A stretch of DNA of 64,000 nt, from positions 2,403,704-2,467,703 of the forward strand of contig OZ241333.1 in the NCBI GenBank assembly GCA_965200085.1. The letters are read 5' to 3'. Shown piece by piece: positions 7,013-52,433 of this stretch. The notes below the pieces were generated by a model. The model was given only the letters and a program-made list of their open reading frames with translations. It had not been told where the DNA came from and searched no databases. The stretch is from Dehalococcoidia bacterium. GTDB lineage: Bacteria > Chloroflexota > Dehalococcoidia > Lucifugimonadales > JADFKI01. Position numbers and translations under genes: made by a program. Each line of letters opens with the position of its first letter. Position 1 is the first letter of the stretch.

Positions 7013-7360
7013 TTAATCCACGTTCACCTTAACGATGACGGCGGCGTTGGCAATGATAGTAACGTCGCCGGAGCCTTCCCTGCCCTCGATCTCCAATCCC
7101 CCCTGCACGACCTTCAGCACGCCTTTGCCATGCGGCAGTACGCTTAGAACTTCATCGTGGTTGACGGCTTCGGGGTTCGGTATGCCGATTGTTACTTCAA
7201 CAATCATCTCCTTTGATGTGTTGGGCCCAAGCAGTCCGAGAAACATCAGGCTGCTCTGGTGAACGGCGTTCCATGTCGCGCGTTTTGCGGCTTCGGTGTA
7301 GTCTTGCCCGTGCAAGTCTATGCCCGTCCCCATTTCAAGAATCGCAGGTGTAAGCGGCAT
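7013..7360 (-). CDS. Lin0512-family conserved hypothetical protein
   Basis: LEMGTGIDLHGQDYTEAAKRATWNAV matches my recollection of the Lin0512 family N-terminus. ATG 7360 is preceded by GGAGGG, so the track ORF start at 7378 is probably too long. Confidence 0.55.
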   Translation of the reverse strand: MPLTPAILEMGTGIDLHGQDYTEAAKRATWNAVHQSSLMFLGLLGPNTSKEMIVEVTIGIPNPEAVNHDEVLSVLPHGKGVLKVVQGGLEIEGREGSGDVTIIANAAVIVKVNVD

Positions 7361-7555
7361 TTTTCCCTCCGGCTGCAAGTCGTGTTAGCTGTAAGTTAAC
7401 AGATGAGTGAAAGTTTGGGGCTAATTTGAACGCCTGTCAAGTTCCTGAAATTAAAATTCGCGCAGCGCATCAGTTTGAAATCTTTGCTGCATCATTGGCA
7501 GCCGCATAATTCAAACTGACCCACTATCAAAATCAAAATTCGCGTGGAAACTCAA

Positions 7556-7585
7556 TGGACATAAACAGGGGCAGCCTGTTAAAAT
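7556..7585 (+). promoter_or_regulatory. Candidate sigma70-type promoter for tRNA-Gly
   Basis: TGGACA (7556-7561), 18-nt spacer, TAAAAT (7580-7585), 10 nt before the tRNA 5' end. Confidence 0.35.
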
Positions 7586-7595
7586 CGACAGGCAA

Positions 7596-7670
7596 GCGGG
7601 AGTAGCTCAGGGGTAGAGCATCTGCTTCCCAAGCAGAATGTCGCGGGTTCGAATCCCGTCTCCCGCTCCA
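7596..7670 (+). tRNA. tRNA-Gly (anticodon CCC), CCA encoded
   Basis: Folded by hand. Acceptor GCGGGAG/CTCCCGC, D arm GCTC-AGGGGTA-GAGC, anticodon arm TCTGC-TTCCCAA-GCAGA, T arm GCGGG-TTCGAAT-CCCGT, then T-CCA. Confidence 0.9.
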
Positions 7671-7697
7671 CCGCCTTGCACAATAGAAGGGATTTCT

Positions 7698-8048
7698 ATG
7701 CCTATTATCAACAGGGACGATTACGAAAAACAGGAGCTTTCGCCCGGAGTTGATCGCTGGGCGCTGGTTGACGGCGAGAAAGGCTCGGATTCAACGAGCG
7801 TCGGGGATGTTGTCTTGGGCGTGGACGGCATTGTGCCCACACATATTCATCCAACGGAAGAGGCAATGGTAATTCTGGAAGGCGAACTGGATGCCATATT
7901 GGGAAACGAGACAATTCCTGTGCGCGAGGGACAGACCGTGCTTGCTCCGGCAGGTGTGCGGCACGGCTTCGTGAATCGATCAGGCTCGCCCGCGCGGGTT
8001 CTTGCCATCTTTCCCACCGCGAATATGGAACGCACTCTGGTCGATTAA
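7698..8048 (+). CDS. Cupin-domain protein
   Basis: HIHPTEEAMVILEGELDA...GQTVLAPAGVRHGFVN matches cupin motifs 1 and 2. ATG 7698 follows GAAGGGA. The track start at 7638 overlaps the tRNA. Confidence 0.8.
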   Translation: MPIINRDDYEKQELSPGVDRWALVDGEKGSDSTSVGDVVLGVDGIVPTHIHPTEEAMVILEGELDAILGNETIPVREGQTVLAPAGVRHGFVNRSGSPARVLAIFPTANMERTLVD

Positions 8049-42298: not shown

Positions 42299-43234
42299 CT
42301 AGAACTGCTCCTCCGTCGCCCAAGTTTTTATCAGATGGTGCGCTATTGCAAGCTGCCCCGGCACCGTCAGTTTATCGCTCTTACCCTCCAGCGCAAGCAG
42401 CACTTCAGAGCGCTCAAACCACTGAACATCCGTCATCTCTTCCGCATCCATGTTGATGTCCGTAGTAGCGGCTTCAGCAATGCAGCCTATCATCAGAGAC
42501 GAAGGAAACGGCCAAGGCTGCGAAGAATGATAACGTACATTCTTCACCTGTATCCCTGCTTCCTCCATAATCTCACGCGCCACAGCCTCCTCTATCGCCT
42601 CTCCCTGGTCCATAAACCCTGCCAGCGCCGAGTACATACGCATACGCGACAGCCTTCCTCTTGACTGCCCCAGCAAACAGCGGTCTCGCTCCGTGTCCTC
42701 CACCACAGTGATTATCACAGGATCGGTGCGCGGGAAGTGCTGCGCCTTGCACGACGGACACACACGCATCTGACCGCCACGCCTCATAATTGAAGGCTGC
42801 CCGCACACTGAACAGAATCCGTGCCGCCTATGCCAGTCCAGCTGCGCACGCGCCTGAGCAACTATCCCGCCTTCCTGCACTGACAGAAGCTCTCCCGCTG
42901 TCCTGCAATCCTCAAAGCGAACTCTCGTGCATCTCTCGACAGAAGCCGCAGCGTTCTCATCGGACAGTTCGACTGCAAAGTGTGTAACGCCGTCATGCAG
43001 CCCCAGCATAATCGGCTTATTCTCTACACCGCACTCACGCAGCGCATCTACGGACATCCACACTAATGTCGGTTCTGCATCACCTCCAAGCAGCACATTC
43101 AGATTATTGAACGGCAGAAATCGACTCCGAGAATCCCGCGACTGAGCCTCAATCCAATCCTCGTCACGCCGCTCCCGTTCACCCCTGTCCAGCGGATTGC
43201 CTGCAAATACATGTGGCTTCCTCAATGAATACAC
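42299..43234 (-). CDS. nudC: NAD(+) diphosphatase (NADH pyrophosphatase)
   Basis: The Zn ribbon is CSVCGQPSIMRRGGQMRVCPSC. The Nudix box is GFMDQGEAIEEAVAREIMEEAGI. The NudC signature is SQPWPFPSS. Confidence 0.9.
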   Translation of the reverse strand: MYSLRKPHVFAGNPLDRGERERRDEDWIEAQSRDSRSRFLPFNNLNVLLGGDAEPTLVWMSVDALRECGVENKPIMLGLHDGVTHFAVELSDENAAASVERCTRVRFEDCRTAGELLSVQEGGIVAQARAQLDWHRRHGFCSVCGQPSIMRRGGQMRVCPSCKAQHFPRTDPVIITVVEDTERDRCLLGQSRGRLSRMRMYSALAGFMDQGEAIEEAVAREIMEEAGIQVKNVRYHSSQPWPFPSSLMIGCIAEAATTDINMDAEEMTDVQWFERSEVLLALEGKSDKLTVPGQLAIAHHLIKTWATEEQF

Positions 43235-43569
43235 TCCTTACATCGCCCGTTATAATACTGCGACCTAGCGCCGCCTCCAAGCGATTATACATAACAGAAA
43301 CCACGCTATTCCATAATCAATAGCGCTTCTCAACTAAATAACCATTAAATAACAATCAATACTCTCTCGTGCACGACTACCATATTTCACCCTGTTTTAT
43401 GTATCATGCCTTTGCTCTAGAATTGCCAAAACGGACATTTGACCTTGTATTCGCTGTAATTAGCAGGGGCACGGGACGATCAACAACACATCAGAGCCAA
43501 CTCAACGCCAGCGCAACTGAGGCCGGAGTACATTCTTTGAACAGAAACCCTGACGGACACCAAGTCGCT

Positions 43570-45120
43570 ATGAACAAGAGATACGACTACATCATCGTGG
43601 GAGCAGGTTCTGCAGGCTCAGTCCTTGCCGCTCGCCTATCCGAAGATTCTAACTGTTCAGTTCTGCTCCTCGAAGCAGGCATGGACTATCTCACACCCGA
43701 GCAGATGCCCGACACCGTAAAATACGCTTACGGTACGGACGCAACTATATGGGAAAGCCGGCATATATGGAAGTTCCGCGCCAGAGCCAGTGATCGCGCC
43801 TATATCGACATACCGCGCGGAAAGGTAACGGGCGGCTCCAGCGCAGTTAACGACGCCCAGTTCCTCCGAGCCATGCCGGATGATTTCGACAGGTGGGAAA
43901 GCTGGGGAAACACAGAATGGAGCTACAACAAGATATTCCCATACTTGCGAAAGCTGGAGACTGACCTAGATTTCGAAAACGAATTCCACGGCGCCAATGG
44001 CCCAATCGTCTGCCGCAGGCATCAGCCCGAGGAATGGGGACAACACCAGCATGCGTTCTATCAGGCATGTATGGATGCCGGCTTCGCTCACTGTCCTGAC
44101 CATAATCGCCCCAACTCAACCGGTGTAGGACCGCTCGCATTTAACATAGATGACCGGGTACGAGTAAGCACCGCAATCGCCTACCTGGATCCCGCGCGCA
44201 ATCGAGCCGGGCTTACTATAATGTCGAACTGCCATGTACACGGCATCATCTTCGAGCGCAGCCGAGCGGTGGGTGTACGTGCGATTAGAGAGCAGAAAGA
44301 GTTTACTGCATACGGCAGCGAAGTAATCCTATGCGCCGGCGCCATAGGAACGCCACAAATCCTCGCGCTATCAGGGATTGGTCCTGCTGACCAGCTGCGA
44401 CAGTTAGGCATACCTGTGATACAGAACCTCCCCGGAGTCGGGCGCAATCTCAGAGATCACCCCGATGTGCCAATGGCTTGGAGAACACACGCAGACTTTC
44501 AAATAAACACTGAACAAGTCGCAACCGGGACAGTAACTCTGCGATTCACAGCGTCAAACTCGCCTTTCACCAACGATCTGGTCATCTATATGGGAAACTA
44601 CTCGGCTGCAAAACCGATGCGAGGGCAAGATAACTTGCACCCCATCGGCTTAGGCGTAAGCCTCTGCCTATACTTAGCGCTAAGTCAGGGTGAGCTGCGC
44701 ATCCGTTCACGCGACCCATATCAGCGCCCATATCTCGATTTCAATCTGCTGGCTCACCCCTTCGACCGCGCCCGCCTCCGAGAAGCAATCAAACTATGTG
44801 CAGATATATTCAAGCACAAAGCCTTCGCTCCCATCATCCTAGACCGCATCGCGCCGTCCGAAGATATACTGAACGATGACAACGCCCTTGATTCTTGGAT
44901 GAAGCGCGAAGTAGTAACCGCACACCACGTTTCAAGTACCTGCAAGATGGGACCTGAAGATGACACCATGTCGGTAGTTGACCAGTATTGCAAAGTGCAC
45001 GGTGTAGATGGGCTCAGAATCATCGACGCATCTATCATGCCCGACACCGTGCGCGCCAACCTCAACTTAACCGTAATCGCCATGGCAGAGCGCGCAGCCG
45101 ACCTTATCAAAGAAGATTAG
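43570..45120 (+). CDS. GMC-family FAD oxidoreductase (choline-dehydrogenase-like)
   Basis: YDYIIVGAGSAGSVLAARLSED, LLLEAG, GKVTGGSSAVN, and the C-terminal HHVSSTCKMG...GLRIIDASIMP. ATG 43570 fits the family N-terminus. Confidence 0.9.
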   Translation: MNKRYDYIIVGAGSAGSVLAARLSEDSNCSVLLLEAGMDYLTPEQMPDTVKYAYGTDATIWESRHIWKFRARASDRAYIDIPRGKVTGGSSAVNDAQFLRAMPDDFDRWESWGNTEWSYNKIFPYLRKLETDLDFENEFHGANGPIVCRRHQPEEWGQHQHAFYQACMDAGFAHCPDHNRPNSTGVGPLAFNIDDRVRVSTAIAYLDPARNRAGLTIMSNCHVHGIIFERSRAVGVRAIREQKEFTAYGSEVILCAGAIGTPQILALSGIGPADQLRQLGIPVIQNLPGVGRNLRDHPDVPMAWRTHADFQINTEQVATGTVTLRFTASNSPFTNDLVIYMGNYSAAKPMRGQDNLHPIGLGVSLCLYLALSQGELRIRSRDPYQRPYLDFNLLAHPFDRARLREAIKLCADIFKHKAFAPIILDRIAPSEDILNDDNALDSWMKREVVTAHHVSSTCKMGPEDDTMSVVDQYCKVHGVDGLRIIDASIMPDTVRANLNLTVIAMAERAADLIKED

Positions 45121-45203
45121 TCGTAACAACTCCTCATATATACGCTCACTCCCACCAATCAGAGGTCATATCTGTGCTACCGCTATTAAGTAATAGAATA
45201 GAA

Positions 45204-45232
45204 TTGTACGATAGAGTGCGCTAGGATATACT
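45204..45232 (+). promoter_or_regulatory. Candidate sigma70-type promoter upstream of relA/spoT
   Basis: TTGTAC (45204-45209), 17-nt spacer, TATACT (45227-45232), 59 nt before ATG 45291. Confidence 0.4.
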
Positions 45233-45290
45233 ACAATAGTGAAAAGTCAGGTTAAATTCAAACCGATAAGCATCATAGGCATGCGTAAAC

Positions 45291-47456
45291 ATGGTTGACA
45301 TTCTTCTGGACAAAGCAAAGGTTTACCTACCTGCGGACAGGCTGGGCATCATTGACCAAGCTTATCAGTTCGCTGCGGAAGCGCACGAGGGACAGTTTAG
45401 GCGGTCAGGTGAACCTTTCATAGAGCATCCGCTTCAGACTGCGTTATTTCTGGCAGAATTGCGTCTTGATTCTAATGCACTTGCAGCGGCGCTCTTGCAT
45501 GATGTTGTTGAAGATTGCGATGTGTGCTTAGAGGAAATCGAGGTCGAGTTCGGGAGTGAAATTGCAGGACTCGTCGATGGTGTTACCAAGCTGACTAAGG
45601 CTGAGATGGCTTCGGAGGAAGGGAATAGAGGGTTCTTGTTAGCAGGGCCTGAGGTGGATTTGGAGCAGGCTGCGAGCCTTCGCAAGATGCTGGTCTCGAT
45701 GGCGTCCGATATACGCGTAGTGCTAATCAAGTTGGCGGACAGGCTGCATAACATGCGCACCCTGTATGCGCTTTCCCCAAACAGACGCCGCGCCATTGCG
45801 AAGGAGACGCTGGAGATATTTGCCCCTCTAGCGCATCGACTCGGTATATGGGAGATAAAATGGCGCCTTGAAGATTTGGCGTTTCAACATCTGAACAACG
45901 GCGCGTATCAGGAAATATCCAAGATGTTGAACGCGAAGAGGCTGGAGCGCGAGGAATATATCGAAAGCGTGCGTTCGATGCTCCAAGCGGAGCTGGACAA
46001 AGCCGGTCTCAAGGCTGAGGTTACGGGCCGTCCGAAACATATTTACAGCATTCATAAGAAGACCGAGAAGTATCGGCGTCAGAACCTCGGCGTAGATGAC
46101 ATTCACGACCTTTTTGCGCTGCGGATACTCGTTGACAATGTGAAAGACTGCTACCTAGCTCTTGGTATGGTGCATTCGAATTGGCGGCCCTTACCGGGTC
46201 AGTTTGACGATTACATCGCAAATCCTAAGGATAACCTATACAAGTCACTGCATACTACGGTGCTGTGCATTGACGCGCATCCGGTCGAAGTTCAGATACG
46301 AACTTATGAGATGCACCGGCTTGCCGAATATGGTGTTGCGGCTCATTGGTTATACAAAGAGGGACGCTCGTCGGACATAGAGTTCGAGGAGAAGATGACA
46401 TGGCTGCGCCAGATTCTGGACTGGCAGCGAGATGTGAACGGATCGCATGAGTTCATAGAGTCGTTTAAGACGGACATATTTAAGAACCAGGTATATGTTT
46501 ATACTCCTAAGGGAGATCTAAAAGAGCTGCCTGCCGGGGCGACGCCGTTAGACTTCGCTTTCCGCATTCATACCGACGTGGGACATCGGTGCATTGGCGC
46601 TAAAGTGAACGGGAAGCTAGTCGCTCTCACATACCAGCTGCAGAACGGCGATACCGTTGAGGTTATGACGAGCAAGACGGTGAAGGGACCTAGCCTTGAC
46701 TGGCTTAACCCTAATCTTGGCTATCTCAAATCGAACTCGGCGAGAACGAAGGTCAGGCAGTGGTTCAATCGTCAAGAACGCAAAACAAACATTGAACGCG
46801 GAAAGGACATATTCCGCAGACAGCTCCGCAGGCTGAATATGTCGATGGCGGATGAAGAGCTTGCGCGCGTTCTCAAATTCAGCAGCACTGAGGAGTTTCT
46901 TGCGGCACTGGGCGGCGGAGATATAACAGTAGAGCAAGTTGTTGAGCGTATAACGAATCAGGAAATCCCTCAGGATGAAGATTTTGAGCAGATTCACAGC
47001 GTTCCTGCCAGCAGTCCCGCCTCGGGCATCGAGGTGCTGGGCGTAGGAGACCTGCTGACACAAATGGCAAATTGCTGTACACCTATTCATGGGGACAGCA
47101 TTATCGGTTATATCACACGAACCAGAGGCGTTACCGTTCATCGCAGAAACTGCTCCAACATCGTTGCCGAGCGTGAGACTGAGCGTCTAATTCCTGTCGC
47201 GTGGAGTAAAGCGCATCCGCTTTATCCTGTACGCGTTCGACTGGAGGCGCGTGACAGAGTGGGACTGCTTCGTGATATTACCTCCCTTGTTTCGGAAGAA
47301 GGTGTTAATATAGCATCATGTGTGTCAGAAGAGGAGAAGGATGTTAGCATCATCTCTCTGACAGTTTATGTTGACGGTATCAGCCAACTCAACCGTCTGT
47401 TCTCCAAGATGGAGAGCGTACGAGGAGTGATTGGCGTGAGCAGAACGAGAGTTTAA
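45291..47456 (+). CDS. relA: Bifunctional (p)ppGpp synthetase/hydrolase (RelA/SpoT homolog)
   Basis: The HD domain carries HEGQFRRSGEPFIEHP and LLHDVVED. The synthetase domain carries HIYSIHKK and YKSLHTTV. A TGS domain (VYVYTPKGDLKELPAGATPLDFAFRIHT) and a C-terminal ACT-like domain follow. Confidence 0.93.
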   Translation: MVDILLDKAKVYLPADRLGIIDQAYQFAAEAHEGQFRRSGEPFIEHPLQTALFLAELRLDSNALAAALLHDVVEDCDVCLEEIEVEFGSEIAGLVDGVTKLTKAEMASEEGNRGFLLAGPEVDLEQAASLRKMLVSMASDIRVVLIKLADRLHNMRTLYALSPNRRRAIAKETLEIFAPLAHRLGIWEIKWRLEDLAFQHLNNGAYQEISKMLNAKRLEREEYIESVRSMLQAELDKAGLKAEVTGRPKHIYSIHKKTEKYRRQNLGVDDIHDLFALRILVDNVKDCYLALGMVHSNWRPLPGQFDDYIANPKDNLYKSLHTTVLCIDAHPVEVQIRTYEMHRLAEYGVAAHWLYKEGRSSDIEFEEKMTWLRQILDWQRDVNGSHEFIESFKTDIFKNQVYVYTPKGDLKELPAGATPLDFAFRIHTDVGHRCIGAKVNGKLVALTYQLQNGDTVEVMTSKTVKGPSLDWLNPNLGYLKSNSARTKVRQWFNRQERKTNIERGKDIFRRQLRRLNMSMADEELARVLKFSSTEEFLAALGGGDITVEQVVERITNQEIPQDEDFEQIHSVPASSPASGIEVLGVGDLLTQMANCCTPIHGDSIIGYITRTRGVTVHRRNCSNIVAERETERLIPVAWSKAHPLYPVRVRLEARDRVGLLRDITSLVSEEGVNIASCVSEEEKDVSIISLTVYVDGISQLNRLFSKMESVRGVIGVSRTRV

Positions 47457-47511
47457 TTAAACAACCGATGTATGAGAAACAGGCCGGTTGTATTGCGGGA
47501 GGACAAGAGAA

Positions 47512-47772
47512 GTGCCAAGTGCCAAGTCAGCACGAGTATCGGTGAGGAAGCGCAATCGGAACATTCCGTTGCGTACTAGAGCCAAGACTGAAATCAAGAA
47601 AGCGCGAACGCTCATAGACGCCCAAGACATAGAGGGCGCTGAAAAGGCGGTTCGCTCTGCATTCGCAGTACTGGATAAGGCAGCCCAAAAGGGCGCTCTG
47701 CACGCTAACAATGCATCGCGTCGCAAGTCGCGAATTATGAAGGCGCTGCAGAAGGCAAAGAGCGCGGGCTAA
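47512..47772 (+). CDS. rpsT: 30S ribosomal protein S20
   Basis: SAKSARVSVRKRNRNIPLRTRAKTEIKK...LDKAAQKGALHANNASRRKSR. GTG 47512 lies 8 nt after GGGAGG. Confidence 0.9.
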   Translation: MPSAKSARVSVRKRNRNIPLRTRAKTEIKKARTLIDAQDIEGAEKAVRSAFAVLDKAAQKGALHANNASRRKSRIMKALQKAKSAG

Positions 47773-47806
47773 TATAAATGTACAGGATGGAAGGAATCAC
47801 TAAATA

Positions 47807-48160
47807 ATGCTCAGGATGAGATTGAGAAGGGTCGGGGCGAGGAATCAGCCGAGTTACCGTATAGTAGTAGCGGATTCTAGGGCAGCGCGAGACGGCGCTT
47901 TCGTTGACTACCTGGGACACTACAACCCGCGCACAGAGCCTCCAACGATTGTCATAGACGAAGAAAAGGCGCGCAAGTGGCTCAGCGTTGGCGCACAGCC
48001 TTCGGATGCGGTGCAGCGTATTTTGGATAAGATGAGCGCGCCTGAAGAAGCGCCCATCGCAGAAAGTCAGTCGAACTCGGAGGCAGAGTCATCATCCGAA
48101 GCGGACGACACCGCAGGTGATGAGATTTCTGACAAAGCGGAAACAACCACTGTCGAATGA
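47807..48160 (+). CDS. rpsP: 30S ribosomal protein S16 with acidic C-terminal extension
   Basis: MLRMRLRRVGARNQPSYRIVVADSRAARDGAFVDYLGHYNP. Confidence 0.92.
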   Translation: MLRMRLRRVGARNQPSYRIVVADSRAARDGAFVDYLGHYNPRTEPPTIVIDEEKARKWLSVGAQPSDAVQRILDKMSAPEEAPIAESQSNSEAESSSEADDTAGDEISDKAETTTVE

Positions 48161-48387
48161 AAGATATAGTTGAGTACATAGCCAAAGAGATAGTATCTCA
48201 TCCTGACGAAGTTGTAGTTACTGAGGAAGAGGAAGGAGACGGACTTATCATACTTCGGCTCGAAGTCGCTCCTTCGGACAAAGGCAAAGTCATTGGACGT
48301 CAAGGCAGGGTGGCACAGTCTATACGCTCCCTGCTGCGTGTGGCAGCTGTCAAAGACGGCACAAGAGTTATCCTTAAAGTAGATTAG
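48157..48387 (+). CDS. KH-domain RNA-binding protein (UPF0109/YlqC-like)
   Basis: KGKVIGRQGRVAQSIRSLL carries the GxxG KH motif. The start overlaps the rpsP stop (ATGA). Confidence 0.85.
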   Translation: MKDIVEYIAKEIVSHPDEVVVTEEEEGDGLIILRLEVAPSDKGKVIGRQGRVAQSIRSLLRVAAVKDGTRVILKVD

Positions 48388-48396
48388 GCTCTCCGT

Positions 48397-48912
48397 TTGT
48401 CTTCCGTTCCAACTTCTGACGAATCGCCTGTCGTTGTGGGCAGGATACGCTCTGCTTGGGGAATACGCGGCGATGTAGGCGTGGAGGTGCTGTCGGACTC
48501 GCCGAGTCGCTTCGCCAAAGGGAGCGTCTTGCTGCTTAGGGGCAAGCCCACTTTGGTAGAGCGCTCTCGAAAAGGTAAGCGCGGCCTTTTAGTGAAGCTG
48601 GACGCCGCAGACAATCGCACACAGGCGGAAGCTCTGCGCGGAGAGGACCTTACAGTACTGCCGGAGCAGGTAGAGCCGCTGCCGGAAGGTATGTACTACC
48701 ACTTTCAGATTTTGGACCTGCCAGTAGTTACGCAGGACGGTGAACCGCTCGGCGCCATAAGCGAGATAATCGTTACGGGCAGCAATGATGTATATGTCGT
48801 TCACGAGGAAGGACGCCGCGACATTCTGGTGCCTGCGCTTCCGAATGTAATTCTCGCCGTTGACCTAGAAATGCGAGAAATGACCGTTAGTTTGCCGGAC
48901 GGTCTGGTTTAA
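48397..48912 (+). CDS. rimM: 16S rRNA processing protein RimM
   Basis: VVGRIRSAWGIRGDV, the PRC-barrel C-terminal domain, and the position after rpsP-KH. The start is TTG. Confidence 0.88.
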   Translation: MSSVPTSDESPVVVGRIRSAWGIRGDVGVEVLSDSPSRFAKGSVLLLRGKPTLVERSRKGKRGLLVKLDAADNRTQAEALRGEDLTVLPEQVEPLPEGMYYHFQILDLPVVTQDGEPLGAISEIIVTGSNDVYVVHEEGRRDILVPALPNVILAVDLEMREMTVSLPDGLV

Positions 48913-49826
48913 TTCCCCACTCCTGCCGCTTCCTGCATCACTGATGCCGCTTTGAATTCGGCGATGAGCCGCTGCACCAGTGCCGCGTCATTGGGAGGAA
49001 GCGCGAGCCGAGGCGAACGCGGCTCTCCGATGGGCATTCCCACTGCTGCCATAGCGCACTTAGTTGCAGATACATACTTGTCTCCTGCTATAGCGTTTAG
49101 CAAGGGAATCATGCGGTTGTAAAGAGACAACGCTTCGTCCCGTCTTCCTTCGTCCATAAGATCGCACACTGCGGCCGATTCTGCCGGCAGGAAGTTCCCG
49201 ATAACTGACACATACCCTTTTGCGCCGGCCGCCAATGATTCGAAAGGGTGGTATCCGGCGAACACCGTCACGTTGTCAGTGAGGCGGTGTATCTCGCGCA
49301 CTCTTGATATGTCGCCGCTGGATTCTTTAATGTAGCGCACATTATCCAGAGCGCTGAGACGCGCCACGAATTCCGGGCGCAGGTCAACGTTGGCAGTGTT
49401 AGGGTTGTTATATACCATGATTGGTATGGAGACGGCGTCGCTGATACGTCGGAAGTGTTCGAAAAGTTCGTCTTCAGTGGGACTGGAGTAGTAGGGCGAG
49501 ATTATCATCAATCCGTTTGCGCCGATCATCTGCGCTTCGACTGAGTAGCCCACTGCTTTGTCCGTCCATTCGTCTGCAGTGCCGATTAGCACCGGTACGC
49601 GTCCGTCCGCGGCTTCGACGACGGTCTCGATTATCTGCACACGCTCAGAGTCGCTGACTGACAGGAATTCCCCGGTGCTGCCGAGAGGAATAATGCCATG
49701 CGAGCCGTTCTCGACTTGCCAGCCGACAAGACGGCGCAAAGCGTCGGTATCGATGCTGCGTCCGCCGGGTGTGAATGGCGTGGCAAGGACAGTGTAGCTG
49801 CCTCTGAAATCTTCATCTATGTACAT
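48909..49826 (-). CDS. Dihydrodipicolinate synthase / N-acetylneuraminate lyase family (class I aldolase)
   Basis: TPFTPGG...GIIPLGSTGEFLSVSDSER, PVLIGT, YNNP and IKESSGD (the Schiff-base Lys context). The substrate is not inferable. Confidence 0.8.
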   Translation of the reverse strand: MYIDEDFRGSYTVLATPFTPGGRSIDTDALRRLVGWQVENGSHGIIPLGSTGEFLSVSDSERVQIIETVVEAADGRVPVLIGTADEWTDKAVGYSVEAQMIGANGLMIISPYYSSPTEDELFEHFRRISDAVSIPIMVYNNPNTANVDLRPEFVARLSALDNVRYIKESSGDISRVREIHRLTDNVTVFAGYHPFESLAAGAKGYVSVIGNFLPAESAAVCDLMDEGRRDEALSLYNRMIPLLNAIAGDKYVSATKCAMAAVGMPIGEPRSPRLALPPNDAALVQRLIAEFKAASVMQEAAGVGN

Positions 49827-49839
49827 TGGTGCGCTCTCC

Positions 49840-50898
49840 TTAGGTTAGGGATGCTAGGCGGACTTTGAAGTGGGCGGGAAGTTGTCCGGTGTGTTCTATG
49901 ATGGTTTTTGTGTTTCTTACTTGAATCTGTCCGGAGTAGTAAATTTCGATATATACAGGTCCTACTTGACGGGGCCGTTTGAATTCAGCTCCATCGGAGT
50001 GAAAGGGCTTACTAGCAATTATGTATCTCGTTCTTCCCTGTTTAATAGGGCAGTGACTCTCCACTAAAAGGTTTTTGTTCAGTAACCATCTAACGGTTTC
50101 GGACATCATTGCCGCCCAAGATGTAATTTGTATGGATGAATTGTCTGGGAATAGCAGCTCGGCCGGTTTAGAGTATTTAGGGGGTTTTAGTTCCGATAGC
50201 GGTATCCATTCAGTTATGTCAGGCGATAAAGATTGGTTAATGGGTTTTTGTTCGATTGACGGCGGTATTACCCGTTCTTGAACTGGCGTAGGAGCATAAG
50301 TTTCGGTCGGCTCTGATACCGCATTAGCCATACTAGAATTATCAGTTGCGTCTGTTGTTACATAATTTTGCACTGCGCCTAATCCGATGATCGGCTCTTG
50401 CGCTGCGATTATGCTACTTCCTTGTACGCTAGGACGCCATAGAGCAAGGGCTTGCAGGCATACCTTTGCGGGAGACATTTCTCCGACCGTGAATGTTGAA
50501 ATGAGCCTTTCCTCTAAAGGTGCCTGCTTGAATGTTAGATAGATTTTCCATGTTTTTCCGTCAGTGAGTGCGAAGTGAGGAGTACCAATAAAATTACAGT
50601 AGTTGAGGCCCTGCAACGTTACTTTGTCATCTAAAGGCTCACCTAGTTTCTTTGCTTCTATAATTAAGGCGGGAGCTGAACTATCATTTCCTAATAACGC
50701 ATAATCTGCAGAACCTGCTGAGGATCTGTATTCAGGAATGACCATCGAAGGGTCTTCTGTGTTCCAGCCAAGAACCCGCAGCAACGGGTCGATGAGAGCA
50801 TAGCGTGTCAGTGCCTCGCTCTGTCTGAGGGCTGCACCGTGTTCTGTGATGCGCCGGCGCAGGGTTTCGACCGTGTCAAGCAGGTTCTCTAGCGGCAT
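49840..50898 (-). CDS. Orphan protein with an N-terminal HsdR-N-like PD-(D/E)xK nuclease-fold domain, a Pro/Thr/Ser linker and an unrecognised C-terminal domain
   Basis: SEALTRYALIDPLLRVLGWNTEDPSMVIPEYRSSAGSADYALLGNDSSAPALIIEAKKLGEPL matches the type I restriction HsdR N-terminal-like pattern (D...E-A-K). The DNA is visibly AT-richer than its neighbours. Confidence 0.65.
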   Translation of the reverse strand: MPLENLLDTVETLRRRITEHGAALRQSEALTRYALIDPLLRVLGWNTEDPSMVIPEYRSSAGSADYALLGNDSSAPALIIEAKKLGEPLDDKVTLQGLNYCNFIGTPHFALTDGKTWKIYLTFKQAPLEERLISTFTVGEMSPAKVCLQALALWRPSVQGSSIIAAQEPIIGLGAVQNYVTTDATDNSSMANAVSEPTETYAPTPVQERVIPPSIEQKPINQSLSPDITEWIPLSELKPPKYSKPAELLFPDNSSIQITSWAAMMSETVRWLLNKNLLVESHCPIKQGRTRYIIASKPFHSDGAEFKRPRQVGPVYIEIYYSGQIQVRNTKTIIEHTGQLPAHFKVRLASLT

Positions 50899-51095
50899 GG
50901 AATATTCCTTCTAATGCTTGCTGCGCGGATTATAGCATGGCGCTGATGCGAATATAGACAAACAAGAGAGCGATTCTTAACGACTAGCGGTCTGTCCAGC
51001 ACTAAGATTGACTTATCACCTTCAATCCATCAATGCTATGCGGTAATGACTATACCCGCCTTCGTAAGTAAGATTTACGTCAAAATGCAGGGCGT

Positions 51096-52433
51096 CTAAG
51101 AGAGCAGGCGGAGTAGAGTTCGTATCCAATAGAGCAGTCCGCCTTCGAGTTCACGGCGTGAATCCGGAGCTATGTTGGTAAGTATCCACATATAGGTCAT
51201 CGCTTGGTGGAGCGCTCCGAGCGGCTTCGAAGCCTCAAAAGCGTTCACCAAAACTTCCATAGGCGCGTACTTTGTCCAAGCTTCGAGGTAGGCATTTCGC
51301 AGGCGCATATCAGCGTCCGGAATGCCCCTTATCACGCTTTCGTCAAAGTAAGCGGCAGAGATTGTGGACATCTCAAAAAAGGGATGAGAGATACATATAT
51401 CAGTCCAGTCGAAGAAGGTGTAACCCTTGTCGCTGATGATGATATTGCCGCCAAGATCGCCATGAACTAGGGTATGCGGCAAACCTATCTGAGCCAGCTG
51501 AGCGCACATCAGTTTGAGCGGCATGGAAATAGAACGCAGAGCGCTCAGTTCAGATTGGGATAAGCCGCTGTCTCCGCCCGACAGCATCCGTTCGCACGAA
51601 GCAATTAGCGGATCTGTCATCTCGACCATCCGAACTAGACGTCTGTCTGGTATGTTCAGCGAGAACCATTTGCCTATATGCTCGACCTGCTCGACTTGCG
51701 ATCGTGAAAACAGACGCAGTGCATCTTCCCAGCGCGCGATGTCCTGACATTCGTGCAGCATGGCGCTGCCGTAATCCGGCATTAGAAGCCATCCGCGTTC
51801 GGAATCGACGGCGAGCGGCGGCGGGAGCAGCTGGGGACACTGTTCAGCAACGGCTTGCATCGCCCGTCCTTCATGAGACATAAAGGGAGGAGTTGCCTTA
51901 AAGTACACATCGCCCCTATCTGTGCCGACCTTCATCGTGCAGGACAATCCCCACGATCGCTGCTGAATTATAGGTGTTTGCGGCGTGCAGCCAAGCGCAG
52001 CCAAATGAGCGGCAATCCACTCACATACCTCATCGTGCCAACCGATCGATTCCCAAGGCGCGCGCAGTTCCGAGGGACTGTGCAGATTGGCAATCCAAGC
52101 GCTGATAGCCTCAGTTACTGCAGGGTTGGCAAAACCAATAGATGAGGCTTCACCCTGCCCTATCCATCTGGCACTTGGCGGCGCTGATACATTCGTTTCT
52201 CTTGCGGCAGCTACAAATATACGCCAGCGTTCACCGTCGGCGCTGCTTTGCGCTGCGTACTGAAGTGTCCATGTATCAAAGCCGAGCTGACGGCGCATTT
52301 CGGAGTTTATATGCTCGACAATGCGCGAGTCCGTTGTAACAGGACTGAAAGTGGGAACATACCATCCGTCAGAAGACGGCAGCGCCAATACACTTCCATC
52401 TTCTTGCCGTACAACTACGACATGGTATTTCAC
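51096..52433 (-). CDS. Phosphotransferase (APH/choline-kinase-like) family protein with an extra N-terminal domain
   Basis: The catalytic loop is LVHGDLGGNIIIS and the metal-binding motif is FFDWTD. The ~110-aa N-terminal region (MKYHVVVVRQEDGSVLALP) may be Nudix-like. Confidence 0.75.
   Translation of the reverse strand: MKYHVVVVRQEDGSVLALPSSDGWYVPTFSPVTTDSRIVEHINSEMRRQLGFDTWTLQYAAQSSADGERWRIFVAAARETNVSAPPSARWIGQGEASSIGFANPAVTEAISAWIANLHSPSELRAPWESIGWHDEVCEWIAAHLAALGCTPQTPIIQQRSWGLSCTMKVGTDRGDVYFKATPPFMSHEGRAMQAVAEQCPQLLPPPLAVDSERGWLLMPDYGSAMLHECQDIARWEDALRLFSRSQVEQVEHIGKWFSLNIPDRRLVRMVEMTDPLIASCERMLSGGDSGLSQSELSALRSISMPLKLMCAQLAQIGLPHTLVHGDLGGNIIISDKGYTFFDWTDICISHPFFEMSTISAAYFDESVIRGIPDADMRLRNAYLEAWTKYAPMEVLVNAFEASKPLGALHQAMTYMWILTNIAPDSRRELEGGLLYWIRTLLRLLS

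Follow-up and report, generated by a model that had tools for sequence, protein, structure and literature searches.

An HsdR-type nuclease with an exchangeable C-terminal domain at a fixed locus in Dehalococcoidia: a candidate single-protein immune nuclease

The stretch of DNA analysed here, called the window, is 64,000 nucleotides of contig OZ241333.1 from a Dehalococcoidia bacterium. On its minus strand lies a complete open reading frame with an ATG start (49840..50898), which codes for 352 amino acids and ends with a stop codon at 49840-49842. The peptides quoted in an earlier sequence-only reading are found in its translation, and a public collection holds an exact copy of the protein (P0001). 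The product has three parts, a nuclease domain (residues 1-156), a linker (residues 157-227) and a second folded domain (residues 228-352). Direct reading of the sequence confirmed that the gene has its own upstream region of 197 nucleotides (50899..51095, minus strand). Within it are a GAAGGA which resembles an RBS (50906-50911) and TGCTATAAT (50929-50937), which resembles an extended -10 element, both on the minus strand and both consensus matches only; a promoter scan gave a 9/12 promoter-like site at 50980-50951, the number of sites in the region being not above that in shuffled sequences. Thirteen nucleotides downstream on the same strand is a gene of the DHDPS family (48909..49826; Pfam DHDPS, 206.9 bits), the RBS of which, AAGGAG, overlaps the stop codon of the nuclease gene. 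The two genes are possibly co-transcribed.

The N-terminal domain (50431..50898, minus strand) is acidic (pI 5.4) and had been read as an HsdR-N-type or Mrr-like nuclease with an intact D...ExK core. The Pfam model HSDR_N (PF04313) matches residues 26-59 only, with 26.0 bits, which marginally meets its cutoff of 25.1, and HSDR_N_2 (PF13588) covers residues 59-120 but with 19.7 bits falls short of its cutoff of 25. Taken alone the Pfam evidence is thus marginal; in precomputed annotations PF04313 is found on most homologs and PF13588 on many. When the family alignment was compared with HsdR of EcoKI by hhalign (probability 91.9%, E 6.9e-7), D65, E81 and K83 paired with D298, E312 and K314 of EcoKI, and Y100 with Y330. 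D298, E312 and K314 are required for cleavage, their mutants being cleavage-dead, and the QxxxY motif of the RecB family was defined in the same paper (PMC2602864). On the minus strand of the window the codon of D65 (motif II) is at 50704..50706, the codons of E81-A82-K83 (motif III, ExK) at 50650..50658, and those of Q96-G-L-N-Y100 (QxxxY, in the helix of residues 91-104) at 50599..50613. Among 238 family members D65 is conserved in 235, E81 in 234, K83 in 235, Q96 in 228 and Y100 in 226; E28 and E56 fall in the same range of 226-235. The AF2 model has a core with pLDDT above 90 (alpha28-42, beta53-59, beta62-69, beta76-82, alpha91-104, beta108-112), which is the alpha-beta-beta-beta-alpha-beta core of restriction endonucleases with the catalytic residues at their canonical places. 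The best Foldseek matches in the PDB are the nuclease domains of BpuSI (3s1s), DrdV (7lvv/7lo5) and a Vibrio HsdR (3h1t), those of the BpuSI/DrdV type having E about 1e-3 and probability 1.00, and phrog_4225, an 'endonuclease', matches with 50.7 bits. The HsdR-type assignment is thus borne out by the hhalign and Foldseek results, and the intact core by the alignment of the catalytic residues with those of EcoKI and their near-invariance in the family. The Mrr-like alternative is not supported, as the Pfam search gave no Mrr_cat match. These comparisons identify the N-terminal module as an intact, predicted endonuclease head of the RecB/HsdR-type PD-(D/E)xK class.

The linker (50218..50430, minus strand), described earlier as a Pro/Thr/Ser-rich stretch of about 70 residues, does appear as such: residues 157-227 are acidic, rich in Pro, Thr, Ser and Ala, and disordered in the AF2 model with pLDDT below 50. 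In the family as a whole the linker has a length of 5-130 residues (median 44), 15% Pro and a median pI of 4.5, and the linker sequences of different homologs cannot be aligned. It is followed by a basic alpha/beta domain (49843..50217, minus strand; pI 9.6), which is hypervariable, exchangeable and a new family. Its AF2 model is confident (pLDDT 96.2, pTM 0.90). The sequence-only reading had left this C-domain unrecognised, correctly so: despite the confident model it has no match in Pfam or NCBIfam, none of 26 diverse members searched against Pfam has a match, and Foldseek against the PDB and BFVD gave nothing with E below 0.3. There is a weak match to phrog_32890, which has no assigned function. 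Judged from the predicted structure, the C-domain appears to be a new module without detectable relative among solved structures. The median pI across the family is 9.1 for the C-domain versus 5.0 for the N-domain.

Several identities were considered for the C-domain and rejected. Searched as a profile against the sequences of the PDB, the C-domain matched only the poxvirus protein F13/OPG057 (E about 0.9), and a PLD/HKD-like domain was rejected because the His and Lys of the HKD motif have no counterpart. A TGS/beta-grasp domain was suggested by a local match of 30 columns around 'lPDG' to the TGS domain of ThrRS (1wwt_A, E 0.023); this was confirmed neither by hhalign, which gave a probability of 0.4% against the TGS domain of the RelA encoded in the window, nor by Pfam TGS, which matches 0 of the 26 C-domains. 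The best Foldseek match, to the SeqA structure 3fmt_B (E 1.2, probability 0.30, TM 0.40), is not significant, and the C-terminal domain of SeqA is largely helical. Short local Foldseek matches to homing endonucleases gave the idea of an HNH/His-Me finger. H300 is indeed conserved, but N326 and H335, which would have to serve as the Asn and His of the finger, vary in the family. Since Foldseek (PDB and BFVD), Pfam and profile comparisons showed no resemblance of the C-domain to known folds that bind DNA or read modified bases, it is its charge and its fusion partners only that point to nucleic-acid binding.

These fusion partners are diverse. The C-domain was found in 683 clusters at 50% identity and in several architectures, with 1, 2, 3 or 4 copies per protein. 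One fusion partner is a Swt1-like HEPN RNase head (83 bits), and the C-domain is not described in the HEPN survey (PMC3710099). Two further PD-(D/E)xK heads are suggested by Pfam matches below cutoff, a NucS-like one in P0235 (17.1 bits, cutoff 24) and a YhcG-like one in P0257 (17.5 bits, cutoff 32.5), and a fusion with an AAA_16 ATPase occurs in 1 of 139 representatives. Proteins of 860-900 residues carry three copies; one such three-copy protein is encoded next to a gene for a DEAD/Cas3-like helicase-exonuclease, and another next to genes for a SNF2 helicase and an MmeI-like methylase. It should be noted that rare fusions with SPFH/PQQ and cupredoxin domains fit badly with a simple DNA-binding role of the C-domain.

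The nuclease has 1531 homologs at E <= 1e-3, a number which shows that the family is not due to chance. They come mostly from MAGs of Chloroflexota/Dehalococcoidia, and one is from the cultured Thermomicrobium roseum DSM 5159 (WP_012642919.1). A scan of 185,579 species genomes found at least 303 loci, this number being a lower bound as the scan was limited by its pattern. GenBank phages lack the family except for small 'endonuclease' genes with the N-domain only, at about 30% identity. In the source annotations none of 10 clusters carries any name.

It had been claimed that no helicase, methyltransferase or HsdS accompanies the gene, and none is found in the window up to about 12 kb from it in both directions, where neither an immunity gene nor a methylase is adjacent. 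The same was seen in a survey of 146 immediate neighbours at 73 of 75 homolog loci (L005 and L007 were left out as duplicates of L003 and L004), in which partners of the MTase, HsdS or helicase kind were absent, as was any conserved partner. A conserved operon partner was thus looked for across the homolog loci and not found, and the most frequent neighbouring gene cluster occurs at no more than 13 of 83 clustered related loci. The neighbours are mostly metabolic or housekeeping genes (NUDIX, metallophosphatase, CN hydrolase, amidase, DHDPS), and the settings of the homologs are not recognisable as the defence islands in which it had been proposed to look for them, which leaves a role in defence unaffected or slightly less likely. 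In T. roseum the family member follows directly on parA/parB, and at the L003 locus a ParA-like gene adjoins the family member. Matches to PADLOC models among the neighbours are scattered and generic. The protein itself matches only PDC-M54B in PADLOC-DB v2, partially and weakly (26 and 24 bits, residues 25-88), and the region matched is the N-terminal helix shared by HSDR_N domains. With neither a full-length model match nor partner genes there is no full PADLOC-DB v2 system at the gene, and a literature search found nothing on PDC-M54.

The gene is low in GC, as had been claimed from two samples of 60 nucleotides (50101-50160 and 50221-50280), which were confirmed at 0.45 and 0.433. The whole ORF has a GC content of 0.466 compared to 0.543 +/- 0.023 for the 32 other ORFs in the window, and a GC3 of 0.431 compared to 0.585 +/- 0.037. 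Low GC is a trait of the whole family: the homolog is below its flanks at 74 of 75 loci, by 6.5 points on average. A GC content lower than that of the flanks is common in exchanged accessory or defence genes. In nine related genomes the gene is found at the same place beside DHDPS-RimM-KH-S16-S20-RelA, with the DHDPS-family gene as a conserved anchor, adjacent or nearly so, in L002, L003, L008, L009, L020, L030, L083 and L096. No empty site was seen: the gene is there in 9 of 9 syntenic genomes, which in so small a sample is weak evidence; a search with DHDPS relatives in metagenomes added one syntenic locus only (L096), and there the gene is present. The low-GC islet that had been proposed is not a recent acquisition, given this fixed position and the low GC of the family. 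A genomic island or prophage was rejected, since tRNA genes, an integrase and flanking repeats are absent near the gene and the family is nearly absent from GenBank phages.

The position is fixed and the sequence is not. Between the nine syntenic genomes the gene product is 39-61% identical (75% in one pair) compared to 64-98% for the flanking proteins, and in the pair L002 and L008 RelA is 97% identical while the nuclease-family protein is 48% identical. L009 and L003 have N-domains that are 97.5% identical, linkers at 45% and C-domains at 59%, and the break in identity coincides with the domain boundary. Among all pairs in the family with N-domains at least 90% identical, the median identity of the C-domains is 61% (minimum 35%), and N-domains above 97% identical are found with C-domains at 37-59% in genomes with 95-98% identity between the neighbouring genes. 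One pair is the reverse, with C-domains at 92% and N-domains at 56%. The C-domain is decoupled from the N-domain and is swapped like a cassette between related bacteria; it is the allele that moves, above all the C-terminal cassette, and the locus stays. We consider this contrast in identity to be unusually clear natural evidence for the C-domain as the part which bears specificity.

A comparison with known systems shows which features are shared. With 'Region X' of the HsdR nucleases (EcoKI, EcoAI, EcoR124I) the protein has in common the RecB-like core with motifs II (D), III (ExK) and QxxxY, and with HSDR_N domains the N-terminal helix 'sEa.TR..lIdP.L..LGW' matched by the Pfam model. Unlike type I HsdR it has, according to Pfam, no SF2 helicase/translocase domain and no C-terminal MTase-binding domain, its length is 352 residues compared to about 1000-1170, and hsdM and hsdS are found neither in the flanks of about 12 kb nor among the 146 homolog neighbours. 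The type IIG/IIL enzymes (BpuSI, DrdV, MmeI-like) also have the nuclease head N-terminal to the recognition module or modules in one chain, and their specificity evolves by exchange of recognition domains, which resembles the swapping seen here; they differ by having a methyltransferase and a TRD, to which the C-domain is unrelated by Pfam and Foldseek. The type IV enzymes PvuRts1I/AbaSI, MspJI and Mrr are stand-alone and free of methylases, with a nuclease and a separate recognition domain. The bipartite architecture without a cognate methyltransferase is like theirs, by analogy only: the C-domain does not match SRA, EVE/ASCH, the winged helix of Mrr-N, McrB-N or any other known reader, and the head is of the HsdR type and not of the Vsr or Mrr type. 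Uma2/DUF820 proteins, which are abundant in Chloroflexota and cyanobacteria, are likewise small partnerless proteins with a restriction-endonuclease fold in the same phyla, and appear as secondary Foldseek matches (3ot2, 1wdj, 6okh). They are single-domain proteins with neither linker nor C-domain, and the protein described here has no Pfam Uma2 match; Uma2 genes flank family members at L004 and L087. Finally, Cap4 (nuclease-SAVED) and Card1/Can2 (CARF-nuclease) combine a head with a separate sensing domain, and their sensors are shared by DNase and RNase heads as the C-domain is shared by HSDR_N and HEPN heads. Unlike in those effectors, no cyclase or CRISPR signal partner is nearby, and the C-domain is unrelated to SAVED and CARF by Foldseek and Pfam.

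The reading we prefer, at a probability of about one half, is an immune nuclease that works as a single protein and whose recognition domain can be exchanged. It would be self-contained and consist of two modules, the catalytic head and the C-domain. The basic C-domain of 125 residues would recognise the target or act as a sensor, with some feature of a nucleic acid as its most likely ligand, and the flexible Pro-rich tether would allow the head to cut close to the site of C-domain binding. No methylase, specificity subunit or translocase would be needed, the protein acting by itself in an innate, type IV-like immunity which spares the cell itself and is directed against foreign nucleic acid. 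In this Dehalococcoidia lineage the locus is old and has kept its position, and its alleles, chiefly the cassette of linker and C-domain, are replaced or diversify more than 10 times faster than the neighbouring genes. Fast turnover of a cassette at a fixed locus is what an arms race is expected to produce in the determinant of specificity. The hyper-divergence and the occurrence of the C-domain in defence-like contexts indirectly strengthen the reading as a candidate for defence.

That each of the nine syntenic genomes sampled has the gene could also fit a housekeeping role specific to the lineage. The nuclease might be an enzyme of DNA repair or recombination like NucS/EndoMS or the RecB-family resolvases, with a C-domain whose ligand is either some DNA structure or a protein of the replisome or of partition. 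This is in line with its position among the core genes for RelA, S16, S20 and RimM, the metabolic or housekeeping neighbours of the family, the par genes beside the T. roseum and L003 copies, and the strong purifying selection on the catalytic site. Such an enzyme would not be expected to fall to 48% identity where RelA is 97% identical, nor to exchange half of the protein, and the GC content consistently under that of the host, the variable copy number of the C-domain and the hypervariable linker length speak against it as well. So do the occurrence of the same C-domain on HEPN RNase heads and beside helicase and methylase genes, and the small number of loci, 303 in 185,579 species genomes even if this is a lower bound. 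We regard a housekeeping role as unlikely.

The C-domain may instead be a homotypic adaptor, an 'effector-associated domain' and not a nucleic-acid reader, by which the nuclease as effector arm of a dispersed NTPase conflict system would dock onto proteins of AAA_16+C or CCC architecture. Variable effectors with a shared adaptor are reportedly the pattern of such systems in multicellular bacteria, Chloroflexi included, and it is matched here by the several unrelated effector heads, the AAA_16/STAND-like ATPase and the tandem arrays. We find it improbable, as the ATPase fusion is rare (1 of 139), no NTPase gene is conserved as a neighbour, the C-domain is consistently basic, and adaptors that recognise each other should not drop to 35% identity when the effector is above 90%.

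It is quite improbable that the gene is a selfish free-standing endonuclease of the homing type, which would persist by cleaving copies of its locus that are empty or carry another allele, the C-domain recognising the DNA. A single partnerless gene of GC under that of the host, with sharp boundaries of divergence within conserved flanks and with alleles apparently replaced at one fixed site, would look like this, and there is a weak local Foldseek likeness to the DNA-binding modules of homing endonucleases (probability <= 0.12). This likeness is however not significant, no polymorphism for presence and absence was seen in the nine syntenic genomes, all of which have the gene, family members are found at many unrelated loci, and the features of introns, inteins and mobile elements are absent. 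Many HSDR_N/PD-(D/E)xK domains now serve in binding alone, and by this precedent the protein might be a non-cleaving regulator or nucleoid protein with a retained nuclease-like fold, which is very improbable given that the four RecB-type motifs are kept in about 95-99% of 238 members, a conservation not expected without catalysis.

The immune reading of the single gene may be extended, more tentatively and as less likely than not, to the family. The C-domain would then be a new class of hypervariable recognition module which recombines between conserved effector heads and so makes up single-chain innate immune receptors of Chloroflexota. The heads would include the HsdR-type DNase, other PD-(D/E)xK DNases and the HEPN RNase, the module being also found in multi-copy proteins associated with helicases, and exchange of the cassette would re-target specificity at fixed chromosomal loci outside the classical defence islands. 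Such genes would be missed by discovery based on defence islands because they are placed among housekeeping genes. A naturally exchangeable targeting domain on a modular nuclease may also interest enzyme engineers, and the cultured carrier T. roseum makes the idea open to direct testing. The defence repertoire of Chloroflexota is poorly known and has been seen mostly through MAGs; if the immune reading is true, it would include a large unannotated family, of more than 1500 proteins nameless in every source, of single-protein immune nucleases.

The gene under study (49840-50898, minus strand) starts with ATG, codes for 352 amino acids and has an intergenic region of 197 nt upstream (50899-51095), as the sequence-only reading had placed it. 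This region holds an RBS-like GAAGGA 7 nt ahead of the ATG and an extended -10-like TGCTATAAT, both as consensus matches only; promoter-like sites around it were no more numerous in the scan tool than in shuffles. A protein identical to the product is recorded from a 2.83-Mb contig (P0001). The low GC content reported from two samples within the gene (0.45 and 0.433) holds for the whole gene, with GC 0.466 and GC3 0.431 compared to 0.543 ± 0.023 and 0.585 ± 0.037 in the 32 other ORFs of the window. The next gene downstream, 13 nt away and likewise on the minus strand, belongs to the DHDPS family. All ORFs within ~12 kb either side are metabolic or housekeeping: ADH, AMP-binding, amidohydrolase, NudC-like NUDIX, GMC oxidoreductase, RelA, S20, S16, KH, RimM and DHDPS on one side, and APH-like, TPP enzyme, ADH, squalene/phytoene synthase, DinB, thiolase, AMP-binding and CoaBC on the other. 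With no helicase, methyltransferase or HsdS within this distance the gene is indeed an orphan. The upstream gene (51096-52433, minus strand, 445 aa) has as its sole Pfam match a weak one to APH phosphotransferase (27.9 bits, residues 310-390 in the C-terminal part), and the N-terminal ~300 aa have no Pfam match.

The AlphaFold2 model of the protein, made with a 19-sequence alignment, has two confident globular parts, residues 1-156 and 228-352 (pLDDT above 90), joined by a disordered stretch, 157-227 (pLDDT below 50). All available tests of sequence and structure place the head, as modelled, in the HSDR_N/RecB-like PD-(D/E)xK group. Its match to Pfam HSDR_N is marginal (26.0 bits, cutoff 25.1) and that to HSDR_N_2 lies below the cutoff (19.7 bits, cutoff 25), but three stronger tests point the same way. 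The model has the canonical core order of helix 28-42, strands 53-59, 62-69 and 76-82, helix 91-104 and strand 108-112; the second core strand carries D65, the third ends with E81-x-K83 and the next helix holds Q96xxxY100. In a Foldseek search of PDB the top matches (E ~1e-3, probability 1.00) are to nuclease domains, those of BpuSI, DrdV and a Vibrio HsdR fragment, and DUF820/Uma2-type proteins rank next. When the family alignment was compared by hhalign to the first 420 residues of E. coli EcoKI HsdR (probability 91.9%, E 6.9e-7), D65, E81, K83 and Y100 superposed on D298, E312, K314 and Y330. In the published work on EcoKI, DNA cleavage is lost in D298E, E312D/H and K314A, and the Tyr is retained without a distinct QxxxY, exactly as in this alignment (PMC2602864). 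Conservation counted over 238 two-domain family members is 232 for E28, 233 for E56, 235 for D65, 234 for E81, 235 for K83, 228 for Q96 and 226 for Y100; the RecB/HsdR-type active site is intact and under purifying selection. The sequence-only reading had staked the nuclease head on its catalytic residues aligning in profile comparisons, and with EcoKI they do; the prediction of an active nuclease is well supported by sequence and model. If the enzyme dimerises, it might do so through the long helix at its N-terminus (3-26).

The C-terminal domain, modelled alone with 54 sequences, reached pLDDT 96.2 and pTM 0.90 with a predicted beta-beta-alpha-beta-beta-beta-beta-alpha-beta order. It was first described as unrecognised and has stayed so: nothing was found in Pfam, NCBIfam or PDB sequence searches, and Foldseek gave no credible match in PDB or BFVD, the best being SeqA (E 1.2, probability 0.30) and a viral entry (E 0.36, probability 0.04). 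A PLD-like fold was dropped, the poxvirus F13 match having E ~0.9 only, and so was a TGS fold, proposed from a local 'lPDG' match to ThrRS TGS (E 0.023), which got an hhalign probability of 0.4% and no confirmation from Pfam scans of 26 members. An HNH-like fold is ruled out by family variability at the required positions. The only external relative is phrog_32890, a PHROG family of unknown function (27 bits for the target domain, 57 bits for the protein P0207), whose positions 110-188 are matched by residues ~268-340 in the second half of the C-domain (49843-50217, minus strand); tblastn with the C-repeat matched no GenBank phage record. The domain is basic (pI 9.6 in the target, family median 9.1), and the N-domain and linker of the family are acidic (median pI 5.0 and 4.5). 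Its conserved residues include W231, P251, D252, W261, E267, R270, W271, L272, R291, H300, G303, D340, F344, K345 and R347. Residue 340 (codon 49879-49881) is Leu in the target (GQLPAHF) and Asp in 96% of 54 aligned members (GQDPAQF).

An exhaustive search with the C-domain (C) alone gave 683 clusters at 50% identity. Among 139 representatives it follows the nuclease domain (N) as N-C in 78, N-C-C in 9 and N-C-C-C-C in 1, and the others have C alone (36, including many fragments), C-C (5) or C-C-C (10). Other partners are a Swt1-like HEPN RNase (P0227, 83 bits), NucS_C-like and YhcG-like PD-(D/E)xK heads (both by weak matches), an AAA_16/AAA_22 ATPase, an SPFH...TM...PQQ propeller protein, a cupredoxin and a coiled coil. 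The HEPN+C gene likewise stands alone, with a Uma2 gene next to it and housekeeping genes around. At its locus, L087, the Uma2/DUF820 gene (7286-7849) precedes it, with a second small HEPN_Swt1 gene, a transposase-associated gene and a DUF499 ATPase nearby, and at L004:7239-9847 stand-alone Uma2/DUF820 nuclease genes lie on both sides of a family member. The 860-900-aa C-C-C proteins have a ~530-aa unknown N-terminal part before the three C-domains (L089:552-5956; L091:2813-9146; L092:1-9703). One adjoins a 913-aa DEAD/Helicase_C/Cas3-like_C/DNA_pol_A_exo1 (3'-5' exonuclease) gene, and another is divergent from an SNF2 helicase and an MmeI-like methylase with MmeI_TRD; these proteins look like an uncharacterised defence-type system.

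The family of the target comprises 1531 proteins at E <= 1e-3, many of them full-length at 44-60% identity to it and none named by any source. When one genome per species was scanned, with a search limited by its pattern, 303 loci came up; MAGs of Dehalococcoidia and other Chloroflexota hold most of them, and MAGs labelled Latescibacterota, Binatia and Tepidiformaceae hold some. Full-length members at 40-46% identity occur under the Latescibacterota and Binatia labels (L010, L011, L024, L029, L035, L036, L043, L063 and others), and the family is present twice on one such record, chromosome OZ251458.1 (L043 and L073). The labels may be wrong, or else the family spans more than one phylum. A cultured carrier is Thermomicrobium roseum DSM 5159, where the 296-aa 'hypothetical protein' WP_012642919.1 on megaplasmid NC_011961.1 has both domains (100.7 and 99.3 bits with HMMs built here) and a poly-Pro linker between them. 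GenBank phages have only small N-domain-like 'endonuclease' genes at ~30% identity.

After clustering of all ORFs of 83 related loci no neighbour family was found in more than 13 of them, and no conserved partner gene among them. The commonest genes within two genes of a family member code for NudC-like NUDIX (11), metallophosphatase (8) and DHDPS (6), and just 34/152 immediate neighbours have the same direction and a gap below 60 nt. Scanned with Pfam and PADLOC, 146 immediate neighbours were mostly metabolic enzymes with a few toxin-antitoxin-like small genes (PIN, DUF2442, DUF2283, PaREP1, Uma2) and scattered, generic PADLOC matches only. With metabolic neighbours and no recurrent partner the gene is thus stand-alone, outside recognisable defence islands. 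The T. roseum member comes directly after the megaplasmid parA/parB (L095:6012-8888), and in L003/L009 a ParA-like (AAA_31/CbiA) gene and a 163-aa gene directly follow the target homolog (L003:9201-10539). AAA_31/CbiA occurs in 2/146 immediate neighbours, and the adjacency to partition loci may reflect chance or some minor connection.

The order RelA-S20-S16-KH-RimM-DHDPS-target recurs in L002, L003/L005, L008, L009, L020, L030, L083 and the metagenome contig L096, and the other flank is usually a NudC-like NUDIX gene. Since this ancestral neighbour lies at 42299-43234 in the window, the window carries an inversion of the RelA-to-target block. The region concerned, relative to L003 and L096, is 42299-50898; one junction of the inverted block holds the GMC oxidoreductase gene (43369-45120) and the other the 197-nt region upstream of the target. 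The horizontal acquisition suggested for the gene needs revision as far as a recent event is meant: the gene has the same position in related genomes, so that low GC does not mark a recent insertion here, and 74/75 homologs have GC below their flanks (mean difference 6.5 points). Low GC is a family trait.

In these syntenic genomes the flank proteins are 64-98% identical and the target 39-61%, with one pair at 75%. Between L002 and L008 RelA is 97%, DHDPS 90%, RimM 90% and the target 48% identical; for L009 vs L003 the figures are 98%, 96%, 95% and 75%. DNA identity is 0.87-0.98 in the flanks, and the divergent block coincides with the gene. In L009 vs L003 the first ~400 nt of the gene are at 0.91-0.96 and linker plus C-domain at 0.57-0.68 (protein: N-domain 97.5%, linker 45%, C-domain 59%), with the break directly after the last N-domain helix; in L020 vs L008 the N-domain is 87.6% and the C-domain 35.4% identical. 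The family gave 26,532 pairs; where the N-domains are >= 90% identical, the C-domains share a median of 61% (lowest 35%), for instance 98.7% (N) vs 37.3% (C) in P0058/P0094 and 97.4% vs 45.6% in P0033/P0036; one pair is reversed (C 91.9%, N 56.3%). Mean column entropy is 2.21 bits in the C-domain and 1.42 bits in the N-domain. The C-domain is folded, basic, modular and hypervariable, and the linker is a flexible tether. We read these identities as a linker-plus-C-domain cassette that has probably been exchanged, or very rapidly diversified, on a conserved catalytic head. A 609-aa gene without Pfam match (L002:5116-6945, minus strand), two genes from the target homolog and beyond the NUDIX gene, is hypervariable too in the near-identical genomes L002 and L008 (DNA 0.2-0.38, flanks ~0.9) and may be a second fast-evolving gene at the locus.

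Such diversification would match that of specificity determinants in conflicts between host and parasite, TRD exchange in HsdS/MmeI-type enzymes being the analogy. The C-domain would recognise a target, most simply a nucleic-acid feature, as suggested by its charge, by the heads it is joined to, both DNase and RNase, and by its occurrence in helicase/methylase-linked proteins, and the tethered nuclease head would then cleave near the place of binding. Recogniser, tethered head and conflict-like diversification together favour an innate immune, type IV-like nuclease, to which we give a probability of about one half. Of the sequence-only reading, the nuclease, its lack of partners and the unrecognised domain hold, and defence and modification dependence are candidate properties. 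The mechanism does not account for the rare C-domain fusions to SPFH/PQQ and cupredoxin or for the sparing of self DNA. A housekeeping nuclease for repair or segregation would be in keeping with the position among core genes and, in T. roseum, next to parAB, but not with how far the gene has diverged, and seems unlikely. An effector docked via a homotypic adaptor domain onto a dispersed NTPase system is a more doubtful proposal. There is little to expect from a selfish homing-type endonuclease, whose empty sites were not found in a small sample, and a non-cleaving binder is contradicted by the motif conservation and hardly credible.

The protein differs from type I HsdR in having neither helicase nor HsdM/HsdS, and from type IIG enzymes in having neither methylase nor TRD. 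Its second domain matches no known reader, so it is not filed with the known type IV enzymes, and its only match among PADLOC systems is weak and partial (PDC-M54B, 26 bits). The working logic is closest to two-domain type IV enzymes and sensor-plus-nuclease effectors; the nuclease head is known and the exchangeable second domain is new. The family is large and wholly unannotated, and island-based discovery misses it. Its C-domain has no structural relative, the natural signature of cassette-like specificity exchange appears unusually clean, and the cultured carrier T. roseum makes the family accessible to testing.
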